In this document: one piece after another, positions 13,069 through 19,415 of the stretch | Layout: each line of letters starts with the position of its first letter | How positions within the stretch are numbered: the stretch's first letter is position 1 | From: Candidatus Omnitrophota bacterium | GTDB lineage: Bacteria; Omnitrophota; Gorgyraeia; Gygaellales; Profunditerraquicolaceae | Assembly: GCA_030691865.1 (NCBI GenBank) | Contig: JAUYDL010000018.1 | Span: forward strand, 9,518-73,517 | Direction: 5' to 3' | DNA: 64,000 nt | Program-made: the position numbers and the translations under genes | Notes under the pieces: model-generated | What the model saw: the letters and a program-made list of their open reading frames with translations, nothing else | The model's database searches: none | What the model was told of the DNA's origin: nothing

Positions 13069-14925
13069 ATGGCCAAGCAAAAAAAATCTAAACCCAATAA
13101 AACCAACATCATCAAGCGTTTTCCTTTCGGTTGGTTGTTGGTCTTTTTTCTACTGATGATGTTGATGAATTCTTTTAATAATATTTCCACAACCGGTATT
13201 CCTAAAGAGATCAGTTATAGTCATTTTTATCAAACTTTAAAAAATAACCCTGAGAGCATAAAGAAAGTTACCAAAACGGAGACTATCCTCCAGGGAGAAT
13301 TTTCGGATAATTCAAAATTTTTTGTGAATATCCCGGAGAATGACCCGGAGATGCTTGGCCTGATGCGGCAGAATTTAAAGAATTTTGAGATTAAACCGGC
13401 GCGAACATTTTGGATCAGCCTGCTCTTTAATTTAGGGCCGATATTATTGCTTATCTTTTTCTGGTGGATGATGGCAGCCCGCGGAGAACAGTTAGGCTCA
13501 AGAATTATGTCTTTTGGAAAAGTTAAGTCTAAAATTCAAAACAGTAATGAAAAGGCTACTTTTGATGATGTAGCGGGCGTTGATGAAGCGAAAGAGGAAT
13601 TGAAAGAAGTAATTGAATTCCTTAAAGACCCTAAAAAATTTCAAAAGCTGGGCGGTAAAATCCCTAAAGGAGTACTTTTAATTGGTCCACCGGGATGTGG
13701 AAAAACACTCATCGCTAGGGCTGTGGCCGGTGAAGCTAATGTGCCTTTTTTTAGTATATCCGGCTCTAATTTTGTCGAGATGTTTGTAGGGGTGGGAGCT
13801 AGCCGGGTAAGAGATTTATTTGATCAGGGGCGTAAAGCCGGGGTAGTCTCGGGAAAAGGAGCAATAATTTTTATTGATGAAATTGATGCTGTAGGGCGCT
13901 TGCGTTTTTCCGGAATTGGCGGAGGCAATGATGAACGTGAACAAACCCTTAATCAGTTGTTAGTAGAGATGGATGGGTTTGACAGCCAGCAAGGCCTCAT
14001 TCTGATTGCTGCCACTAATCGTCCGGATACACTAGATCCGGCACTCCTGCGCCCGGGAAGGTTTGATCGCACCATTATTATTAACCTGCCGGATATCAAG
14101 GGGCGTGAAGAAATACTTAAAGTACATACACGTAAGATTAAGCTTGCCGAATCAGTTAATTTAAAATCTGTGGCCAGCCAAACCCCGGGTTTTTCCGGAG
14201 CGGACCTGGCTAATCTTTGTAATGAAGCTGCGTTGATGGCTGCCCGCAATAATAAAGAAGCAGTGGAAGAGATTGATTTAGATAAATCAGTAGAAAGAGT
14301 GCTGATGGGGCCGGAAAAGAAAAGCCATATTATGTCTAAGAAAGAGAAACAGATCACTTCTTTGCATGAGTCCGGGCATGCCCTGCTTTCTTTGCTGTTA
14401 CCTGAAGTCAATCCCTTAAAGAAAGTTTCAATTATCCCACGCGGACTGGCCGGTGGGTATACCTTTACTCCGCCGTTGGAAGACCGGCATTACTGGACGA
14501 AGAAAGAACTGCTTGCAGAGATTACCATGATTCTGGGGGGCAGGGCTTCAGAAGAGTTGAGCTTAAGCGAAGTGACTACCGGAGGGCAAAATGATTTGGA
14601 GGTGGCTACCGGTATGGCCAGGCGCATGGTTACTCAATTCGGTATGTCTGAAAGGCTGGGGAATTTGACTCTAGGTAGGAGAGAAGGGCTGATATTTTTA
14701 GGCCGCGATATTATGGAGGAAAAAAACTATAGCGAACAGACTGCGCACATCATTGATGAAGAGGTAAAGCAAATAACTGATGATGCTTATAATAAAGCTA
14801 TAGAGCTGTTAAGAAATAACCAGGATAAACTCAAGCTTCTTTCAAATTCTCTTCTAGAAAAAGAAGTCTTAAGTGGAGAGGAAGTAAAAAAAATACTGGG
14901 AATCGAAAAGAGCGATCTGGTTTAA
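13069..14925 (+). CDS. ftsH: ATP-dependent zinc metalloprotease FtsH
   Basis: 618 aa. Present are N-terminal TM helices, the AAA+ Walker A GPPGCGKT, the second region of homology and the zinc motif HESGHAL. Confidence 0.95.
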
Positions 14926-18912: not shown

Positions 18913-18984
18913 GCCGGCGTAGCTCAGTTGGTAGAGCGATAGTTCTGTAAACTATGGGTCGGGGGTTCAATTCCTCTCGCCGGC
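18913..18984 (+). tRNA. tRNA-Thr (anticodon UGU)
   Basis: Acceptor GCCGGCG/CGCCGGC, D-arm GCTCAGTTGGTAGAGC and anticodon arm ATAGT-TCTGTAA-ACTAT. Overall it resembles Bacillus tRNA-Thr(UGU). The loop reads UCUGUAA, which places C at nominal position 33. Confidence 0.75.
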
Positions 18985-19011
18985 TTAATATGAAGGAATT
19001 TATATTGAAAT

Positions 19012-19296
19012 GGGCAGGTACCCAAGTGGCCAAAGGGGACAGACTGTGTGAACGCAGCGTCTTGCCGAAAGGCAGGGTGGAAAAGTAGGTGAATTCAGGG
19101 GAGCCCCAAGTAACTCTTGGGGGAATCCTGAGCCAAGCCCGCTGTTCATCATCGCGGGAAGGTGCAGAGACTAAGCGCCTACCACCTAAAGTTAAAAACC
19201 AGGGTGATGAGATAGTCCAAGCTTCGGGGTAACTCGAAGGCACTTGAAATCTGTTGCACTCGTGCTTCAAAGGTTCGAATCCTTTCCTGCCCACCA
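19012..19296 (+). tRNA. tRNA-Tyr (anticodon GUA) interrupted by a 199-nt group I intron; CCA encoded
   Basis: The 5' exon is GGGCAGGTACCCAAGTGGCCAAAGGGGACAGACTGT and the 3' exon AAATCTGTTGCACTCGTGCTTCAAAGGTTCGAATCCTTTCCTGCCCACCA. Joined, they give a class-II tRNA-Tyr with the long variable arm and anticodon loop CUGUAAA, very similar to E. coli tyrU. Confidence 0.75.
19048..19246 (+). ncRNA. group I self-splicing intron (IC3-like, Azoarcus tRNA-Ile intron type) in the anticodon loop of tRNA-Tyr
   Basis: The 5' exon ends in U, and the intron's GCAG can pair with exon CUGU to form P1. A P2 hairpin CUUGCC-GAAA-GGCAGG is present. The core GGGAAGGUGCAGAGACUAAGCGCCUACCACCUAAAG nearly matches the Azoarcus intron core GAUGAAGGUGUAGAGACUAGACGGCACCCACCUAAGG. 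The intron ends with G (CACUUG) before AAA. Confidence 0.7.
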
Positions 19297-19344
19297 TTTT
19301 TTGCGGGGTACTCCCGCAAAGACGATTGAAAAGTTACATCTTTT

Positions 19345-19415
19345 GCGGGAGTAGTTCAGTGGTAGAACAATAGCCTTCCAAGCTATGAATGGGGGTTCGA
19401 TTCCCCTCTCCCGCT
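19345..19415 (+). tRNA. tRNA-Gly (anticodon UCC)
   Basis: Acceptor GCGGGAG/CTCCCGC, anticodon arm ATAGC-CTTCCAA-GCTAT, T-arm GGGGGTTCGATTCCCC and discriminator T. Confidence 0.85.

Follow-up and report, generated by a model that had tools for sequence, protein, structure and literature searches.

A compact group I intron in the tRNA-Tyr(GUA) gene of Candidatus Omnitrophota

We analyzed a 64-kb stretch of DNA from a Candidatus Omnitrophota genome, hereafter the window, and found that its tRNA-Tyr(GUA) gene is split in the anticodon loop by an insertion of 199 nt. The explanation that best accounts for the locus as a whole, and in which we have high confidence, is a genuine group I intron without an open reading frame (ORF), located between U35 and A36 of a functional tRNA-Tyr(GUA). 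From the gene itself and from its homologues, we establish here what the intron is, where exactly it begins and ends, that its structure is conserved, and that selection acts on its exons. An earlier reading of the same DNA, made from the letters alone (the first-pass annotation), had already proposed such an intron, and we note below where our results depart from it.

The interrupted tRNA-Tyr gene

The gene is the middle member of a Thr-Tyr-Gly cluster on the forward strand, as the first-pass annotation had it. The upstream neighbor is tRNA-Thr(UGU) at positions 18913-18985 (ARAGORN anticodon tgt; Rfam tRNA score of 64.7 bits), and the downstream neighbor is tRNA-Gly(UCC) at 19345-19415 (ARAGORN anticodon tcc; 73.9 bits). 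Between these two, ARAGORN in its default mode calls no tRNA gene. With introns allowed, the same program calls tRNA-Tyr(gta) at 19012-19296 with an intron i(37,199), which is 199 nt long and begins at gene position 37. This places the insertion at 19048-19246 on the plus strand, exactly the coordinates that had been proposed. The 5' exon (19012-19047, plus strand, 36 nt) contains the 5' strand of the acceptor stem, the D arm, the 5' strand of the anticodon stem, and loop nucleotides C32, U33, G34, and U35. The 3' exon (19247-19296, plus strand, 50 nt) resumes with A36, A37, and A38 and continues through the 3' strand of the anticodon stem, a long variable arm, the T arm, the 3' strand of the acceptor stem, a discriminator A, and an encoded CCA. 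Both exons are supported by the intron-aware call and by a separate run on the spliced product.

We joined the two exons in silico, and ARAGORN called the resulting 86-nt sequence tRNA-Tyr(gta), with its long variable arm and encoded CCA. The spliced product therefore is the class II tRNA-Tyr with the loop CUGU|AAA that was expected from the first reading, and it displays the hallmarks of a bacterial tRNA-Tyr, including the GUA anticodon, the class II variable arm, a canonical cloverleaf, and the discriminator A. Both splice sites are unambiguous, because only the arrangement CUGU|...G|AAA gives the seven-nucleotide loop CUGUAAA together with a U at position -1 and a terminal G in the intron. 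An insertion between nucleotides 35 and 36, previously put forward as the most parsimonious choice, is thus what both the ARAGORN intron call and the spliced product indicate. No second tRNA-Tyr gene was found by ARAGORN in the 64-kb window, and the interrupted gene is probably the only tRNA-Tyr gene of the genome.

When the whole window was compared with Rfam, the one match other than tRNAs was to the group I intron family Intron_gpI (RF00028), at 19037-19239 on the plus strand. The match covers the full model from position 1 to 253 and scores 85.9 bits against a gathering threshold of 50, with an E-value of 1.8e-20. The two sequence patterns that we used to find family members (see below) gave no matches in 100 shuffles of the window each. 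A chance match is excluded by this result and the Rfam E-value together. The first-pass annotation had named an Rfam search as one check on its assignment to group I, and both that search and the covariation across homologues described below bear the assignment out. It had also noted that the intron has no homing endonuclease ORF, and we agree: no such ORF is present, the 199-nt intron is too short for one, and the sole ORF that overlaps it, a 129-aa frame on the minus strand, has no Pfam match. We considered whether this frame, which runs across the locus, could itself be a gene, and rejected it because, besides lacking a Pfam match, it lies antisense to both tRNA-Thr and tRNA-Tyr and overlaps them.

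Structure and conservation of the intron

We scanned reference genomes with a pattern made of the J8/7-P7 segment, the G|AAAUC junction, and the T loop, which gave 120 listed matches, so that the Omnitrophota count is a lower bound. About 90 of the 120 matches listed are archaeal tRNA-Ser genes (Methanobrevibacter and related), in which the pattern collides with the D arm, and these were discarded. The scan yielded at least 26 homologous loci, at least 22 of them complete. All listed homologues come from metagenome-assembled genomes (MAGs) and are labelled Candidatus Omnitrophota except one, which is labelled Patescibacteria group. In the complete genome homologues (at least 22), the introns are 181-290 nt long, and all have the guide GCAGC, a terminal G, and a common insertion site; spliced in silico at the identical site, they give ARAGORN calls of tRNA-Tyr(gta). 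RF00028 recognizes all 15 of the homologues tested, with scores of 84.7-107.3 bits. The Thr-Tyr-Gly order is retained in several of the homologous loci. The genes flanking the cluster are syntenic with those of Omnitrophota MAGs, with nucleotide identities of 65-78%; for intron and exons together, identity to the closest loci is 86-90%. These similarities also place the window in Omnitrophota.

We mapped the helices of the intron by hand, guided by the Rfam alignment, and evaluated them in an alignment of 18 sequences. All elements lie on the plus strand. P1 is formed by C32-U35 of the 5' exon (19044-19047) and the guide GCAG at 19054-19057, with a U35·G wobble at the 5' splice site, and matches the pairing proposed earlier. 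None of the four pairs, U35·G included, varies in any of the 18 aligned sequences, and hence P1 carries no covariation signal. P2, at 19058-19079, is a 9-bp hairpin capped by the GAAA tetraloop that had been predicted (19067-19070), with compensatory changes at seven of its nine pairs. P3 pairs GUAGGUG at 19085-19091 with CGCCUAC at 19176-19182; 100% of its cells are paired, and two of seven pairs are double-changed. P4 (19095-19100 with 19126-19131) is invariant and encloses P5 (19104-19110 with 19116-19122), in which two of the four proximal pairs covary and the distal pairs, being variable in length, align poorly. The segment at 19132-19163 contains P6 (GCC/GGU) and P6a (19138-19142 with 19154-19158), the latter with four of five pairs compensatory.

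P7 pairs GAGACU at 19167-19172, with a bulged A19168, to AGUCC at 19214-19218, and forms a pseudoknot with P3; all five pairs are invariant across the 18 sequences. The bulged A19168 and the adjacent G-C pair of P7 make up what we take to be the guanosine-binding site. The P7/P3 core motif GGUGCAGAGACUA...CACCUAAAG is present at the position given in the first-pass annotation. P8, at 19184-19205, has an internal loop (CCUAAAG...CAGGG) resembling a GAAA-tetraloop receptor, and three of its four proximal pairs covary. It is followed at 19206-19218 by J8/7 (GAUGAGAU) and the 3' strand of P7 (AGUCC), with the invariant block GAGAUAGUCC. The P9 hairpin at 19222-19239 has a GUAA loop, with 100% of cells paired and compensatory changes at five of seven pairs. 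P9.0, which is our own assignment, pairs AAG at 19219-19221 with CUU at 19243-19245; both strands are invariant, so no covariation is seen. The intron ends in G19246, the terminal omega-G of the earlier reading, which is invariant in all aligned homologues. The intron in the window therefore has a minimal helix set, lacking P2.1, P5abc, P7.1/P7.2, and P9 extensions. A minimum free energy (MFE) fold alone recovers P2, P4, P5, P8, and P9 with a z score of -3.37. In the 18-sequence alignment, we looked for a P10 helix joining L1 to AAAUC of the 3' exon and saw none that is conserved.

Over the 18-sequence alignment, 96.5% of cells pair in the P1-P9 model of the intron, compared to 33-49% after shifting the 3' partners by one to three columns. 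Compensatory changes are found at 30 of the 65 pairs, and none of 500 shuffles reached the observed values. These changes are concentrated in P2, P3, P5, P6a, P8, and P9, with P1, P4, and P7 invariant. The invariance of P1, P4, and P7 is covariation evidence neither way; that of P4 and P7 is consistent with a core. The exons show the same kind of constraint. Among 19 distinct spliced sequences, 100% of the cloverleaf cells pair and 10 of 23 pairs are double-changed; the 3-bp stem of the variable arm covaries, and no sequence departs from the discriminator A. Purifying selection therefore acts on ribozyme and tRNA alike.

The fold is probably stabilized by two tetraloop contacts, one between L2 (GAAA) and P8 and another, a candidate, between L9 (GUAA) and P5. 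Among homologues with a GAAA L2, 23 of 27 have a CCUAA...UAUGG-like receptor motif in P8. All five members with a GUAA or GCAA L2 have a plain helix in P8 and no CCUAA. That the loop type of L2 tracks the motif in P8 is suggestive of a tertiary signal, with counts that are not a strict test, as the sequences are related.

Relation to known tRNA introns

A recent survey of 4,934 complete bacterial genomes recorded 333 tRNA group I introns, of which 28 are at position 35/36, and 25 of those 28 are placed in subgroup IA (PMC13011429, mSystems 2026). It also reported accurate in vitro self-splicing of the 35/36 introns of Patescibacteria tRNA-Asn and tRNA-Asp, and its Table 1 includes a Tyr(GUA) 35/36 intron in the Patescibacteria genome GCA_016699995.1. 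Two statements of the first-pass annotation are outdated by this survey: that tRNA-Tyr was not among the known bacterial hosts, and that the 35/36 position looks atypical. The Patescibacteria intron, as far as its Table 1 entry allows a comparison, shares isotype, anticodon, and position with the intron in the window and differs in phylum. Furthermore, the survey states that it placed no Patescibacteria tRNA intron in subgroup IC; the helix set of our intron, in contrast, resembles IC3. Among the entries examined in Table S5 of the same article, the one complete Omnitrophota genome is given a tRNA-fMet 33/34 intron only. Going by that entry, the Tyr intron is therefore not universal in Omnitrophota.

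We compared a hidden Markov model (HMM) of the Tyr introns with those published introns that were available to us. Asn(GUU) 35/36 introns from Nitrospirota and Bipolaricaulota match along the entire length, guide included, at 62-74 bits, with nhmmer alignments spanning HMM positions 14-210. IC3 introns of tRNA-fMet and tRNA-Leu score 27-55 bits, with alignments limited to the P3-P8 core. Judging by sequence similarity, the closest of the published introns compared thus appear to be these IA1-labelled Asn(GUU) introns, ahead of the IC3 fMet and Leu introns. The first-pass annotation had called the intron IC3, and this label holds for the helix set, which is IC3-like; as a family assignment, IC3 is no more than a candidate, the closest published introns compared by sequence being labelled IA1 instead.

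The Tyr introns share with the published Asn and Asp 35/36 introns available to us the insertion site, the 5' target CUGU, and the guide GCAGC, and the Asn introns are also collinear with ours in the P2-P6 region and at the 3' end (GAUGAGAUAGUCCAAGC...GCACUUG). Most of these Asn and Asp introns, in the same material, have no homing endonuclease, and two members self-splice in vitro. They differ from the Tyr introns in their host and in length, the Tyr introns being shorter among the matches listed (median 216 vs 252 nt). A further difference lies downstream of the 5' strand of P7. The distance from GAGACUA to the 3' strand of P3 is 0 nt in the window intron and 15-95 nt in every pattern-matched Asn intron listed. 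An insertion at this place, forming P7.1/P7.2, defines subgroup IA. Among the matches listed, 5 of 35 Tyr introns have this position filled, with 32-48 nt, and in the window intron it is empty.

Like the compact IC3 introns of cyanobacterial tRNA-Leu(UAA) (34/35) and of tRNA-fMet (33/34), the window intron sits in the anticodon loop, is about 200 nt long, and has no ORF. It also shares their minimal P1-P9 set and, in the IC3 sequences available for comparison, the nearly identical core motifs GGUGCAGAGACU and AGAUAGUCC; the insertion site and the guide sequence are different. The tRNA-Ile intron of Azoarcus is another compact IC3 intron, with an L2 tetraloop and a receptor-like P8 as well as a GNRA loop in L9. 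Introns also occur in the tRNA-Tyr genes of eukaryotes and archaea, where they are short and of the bulge-helix-bulge type. Like the intron described here, these sit within the anticodon loop, and the tRNA cannot function until they are removed; unlike it, they lie at 37/38, a single nucleotide 3' of the anticodon, are removed by an endonuclease and a ligase, and have no ribozyme fold (PMC4090602). The literature that we searched on Omnitrophota or Omnitrophica and introns contained no report of a tRNA-Tyr intron clade in this phylum, and a paper on cyanobacterial tRNAs, although it covers both tRNA-Tyr and group I introns, describes none in tRNA-Tyr. Neither the tRNA-Tyr host nor the 35/36 position is new, and the Omnitrophota clade appears to be unreported in the literature searched.

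We searched metagenomes with a second pattern that uses the 5' side of the intron only (CUGU, then GCAGC, then GGUGAAUUCAGGGRA), which matched at least 120 contigs. The metagenome contigs among the matches listed comprise about 84 tRNA-Asn and about 16 tRNA-Tyr genes; the latter add at least some 16 further Tyr introns, with Omnitrophota-like exons and with the insertion site, guide GCAGC, and terminal G of the genome homologues. Among the pattern matches, we rejected five assignments to tRNA-His and one more to tRNA-Tyr, as the 3' exons begin with TAACC and are those of tRNA-Asn. The pattern also matched four viral contigs; in three of these, the intron lies within a phage tRNA array. The intron in the window belongs to this lineage, which targets CUGU| at 35/36 of tRNAs with GUN anticodons, mostly tRNA-Asn among the matches listed.

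Splicing, inheritance, and significance

We infer that the Tyr intron is removed by the guanosine-initiated, two-step chemistry of group I introns, from homology with its relatives, and that this may proceed independently of protein. In the pathway that we propose, the Thr-Tyr-Gly tRNA cluster would be transcribed and the intron would fold into its P1-P9 group I core. P1 would arise by pairing of C32-U35 with the guide GCAG, placing the U35·G wobble at the splice site, and would dock into the core. A free guanosine bound in P7 would then attack the bond after U35. Next, the terminal G19246, positioned by P9.0, would take over the binding site of the guanosine, and the 3'-OH of U35 would attack after G19246, joining U35 to A36 and restoring the loop CUGUAAA. 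Without a conserved P10, the intact anticodon stem would presumably hold the exons together. In the unspliced precursor, the anticodon loop is disrupted and the tRNA cannot decode.

Three other explanations deserve consideration. The first-pass annotation had itself raised the alternative of a pseudogene, in which a decaying tRNA-Tyr gene holds a dead intron relic that is never removed, with tyrosine decoded by another gene. The failure of default ARAGORN to find the gene would fit this idea. However, all cloverleaf pairs are kept in the 19 spliced sequences, 10 of 23 with compensatory changes, even though flanking genes are only 65-78% identical, and in the intron the core, guide, splice-site U, and terminal G are invariant while the peripheral helices covary. 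A relic is not expected to keep both its exons and its ribozyme constrained. With purifying selection acting on ribozyme and tRNA, a dead relic is therefore very unlikely, and removal of the intron is implied. A different question is whether the intron is genuine but needs a protein cofactor or RNA chaperone in the cell, so that it is not truly self-splicing. Introns of this group are very small, some members measuring 181-199 nt, and have few peripheral stabilizing elements, and a chaperone might be needed for efficient splicing in vivo because P1 is just 4 bp and no P10 is conserved. The two candidate tetraloop contacts, with an L2/P8 pair that co-varies by type, speak against a strict dependence on protein, as does the lack of an intron-encoded maturase, and we regard such dependence as quite improbable.

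The remaining alternative concerns how the intron came to be where it is. An actively mobile intron could be spreading horizontally among tRNA genes, either by reverse splicing into CUGU sites or with phages. The lineage is found in the tRNA-Asn of many other bacteria and in tRNA-Tyr here, and because these hosts have the target CUGU in common, at least one host switch must have taken place; the viral contigs with related introns inside tRNA arrays also point toward mobility. Against ongoing spread, the intron encodes no homing endonuclease. In a midpoint-rooted neighbour-joining tree, calculated without bootstrap, the 35 distinct Tyr introns form one clade, and none of the 81 Asn introns falls inside it (among the matches listed). 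The Thr-Tyr-Gly order and the synteny of the flanking genes are conserved. Finally, the divergence of the intron correlates with that of a linked, conserved 252-aa host protein across 12 loci (Mantel/Spearman rho of 0.43, reached by 70 of 2,000 permutations). Active horizontal spread is thus unlikely, and mainly vertical descent is favored on account of the protein correlation, the synteny, the grouping of the Tyr introns in one clade, and the lack of a homing endonuclease. On this evidence, which is modest, descent of the Tyr introns within Omnitrophota appears to have been largely vertical, following a single host switch out of a CUGU-sharing tRNA with a GUN anticodon.

A broader scenario can be drawn from these observations, which we put forward tentatively and with more doubt than conviction. 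A large part of Omnitrophota may make all of its tyrosine tRNA by way of an obligatory ribozyme, a vertically inherited intron of 181-220 nt without an endonuclease in the sole tRNA-Tyr gene. This intron would have moved from tRNA-Asn to tRNA-Tyr through the common CUGU, then lost an IA-type P7.1/P7.2 and converged on a minimal IC3 form.

The Tyr intron leaves the understanding of how group I introns work unchanged. It extends the class of 35/36 introns to a second, phylum-wide host tRNA, and it offers a natural case of one intron lineage residing in different tRNAs that have the CUGU half of the anticodon loop in common. The presence of introns with and without the P7.1/P7.2 insert in one clade blurs the boundary between subgroups IA and IC3. 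If the broader scenario above is true, the members of 181 nt would rank with the smallest self-splicing group I introns found in nature. The members of 181-199 nt are attractive minimal candidate ribozymes for structural and engineering work. For Omnitrophota, the intron has a practical consequence as well. When introns are allowed, ARAGORN assigns some of the homologues wrongly, to tRNA-Ser or tRNA-Phe. With the split gene missed by default tRNA finders and sometimes mislabelled in the intron-aware mode, Omnitrophota genomes will seem to lack tRNA-Tyr, and inferences on their completeness and codon usage will be distorted.

Architecture and size of the introns

Among the matches listed, a minority of the tRNA-Tyr introns, namely those at reference loci L010, L012 and L063 and two from metagenomes, contain 32–48 additional nt between GAGACUA, which precedes the 3′ strand of P3, and AAGCGCC. 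These inserts form small hairpins, such as UUCC-GUAA-GGAA, and occupy the P7.1/P7.2 position. This position is the defining feature of subgroup IA; therefore, IA-like and IC3-like architectures coexist within a single tRNA-Tyr intron clade.

The shortest family members among the matches listed, L111 (720–904) and the metagenome locus L191, measure 181 and 186 nt, with P6a shrunk to CCC-GAAA-GGG. Despite its small size, L111 had the top score against the Rfam group I model within the tested set (107.3 bits). Both introns are shorter than that of Azoarcus, which is ~205 nt and is usually said to be a minimal natural group I ribozyme.

Pitfalls in motif searches and tRNA calling

The AGAUAGUC octamer is common to the group I J8/7-P7 core, which was part of our search pattern, and the D arm of archaeal tRNA-Ser (AGAUAGUCUAGCCUGGUAAGG...). 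For this reason, ~90 of the pattern matches listed (within L001–L120; Methanobrevibacter and other Methanobacteriaceae) were false and were rejected as tRNA-Ser D arms. Searches for introns by motif need to allow for this technical pitfall. ARAGORN, run with introns allowed, also placed introns wrongly, and thus miscalled several genes: Tyr genes (L004, L024, L026 and L028) as tRNA-Ser(tga) or tRNA-Phe(gaa), and Asn genes, at many loci, as tRNA-Thr(tgt). This mislabelling of intron-split tRNA genes agrees with a caution in a 2026 survey of bacterial tRNA group I introns (PMC13011429).

The spacer 3′ of tRNA-Tyr

The spacer that separates tRNA-Tyr from tRNA-Gly opens, immediately 3′ of the encoded CCA, with a T run, which is followed by an 8-bp hairpin (UUUGCGGG GUACU CCCGCAAA; window 19297–19325). 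As the T run lies ahead of the stem and not after it, neither strand has the layout of a canonical intrinsic terminator, and we rejected this reading. The element might be a processing signal.

Related introns in a Patescibacteria-labelled contig and in viral contigs

An Omnitrophota-type tRNA-Tyr intron is also borne by L028, on contig DATJPV010000036.1, labelled as a Patescibacteria group bacterium. Its flank aligns with window 13286–14868 at 70% identity, and the assignment to Patescibacteria probably stems from faulty binning or naming.

The matches listed also include group I introns of the CUGU/GCAGC lineage in three IMG/VR viral contigs: L122 (1928–2126; RF00028, 92.8 bits), L123 (5568–5794; 90.1 bits) and L124 (5812–6025; 64.0 bits). 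In all three contigs, the intron sits within an array of densely packed tRNA genes. Introns inserted between nucleotides 35 and 36 may have phages as a vehicle for their spread between bacterial phyla.
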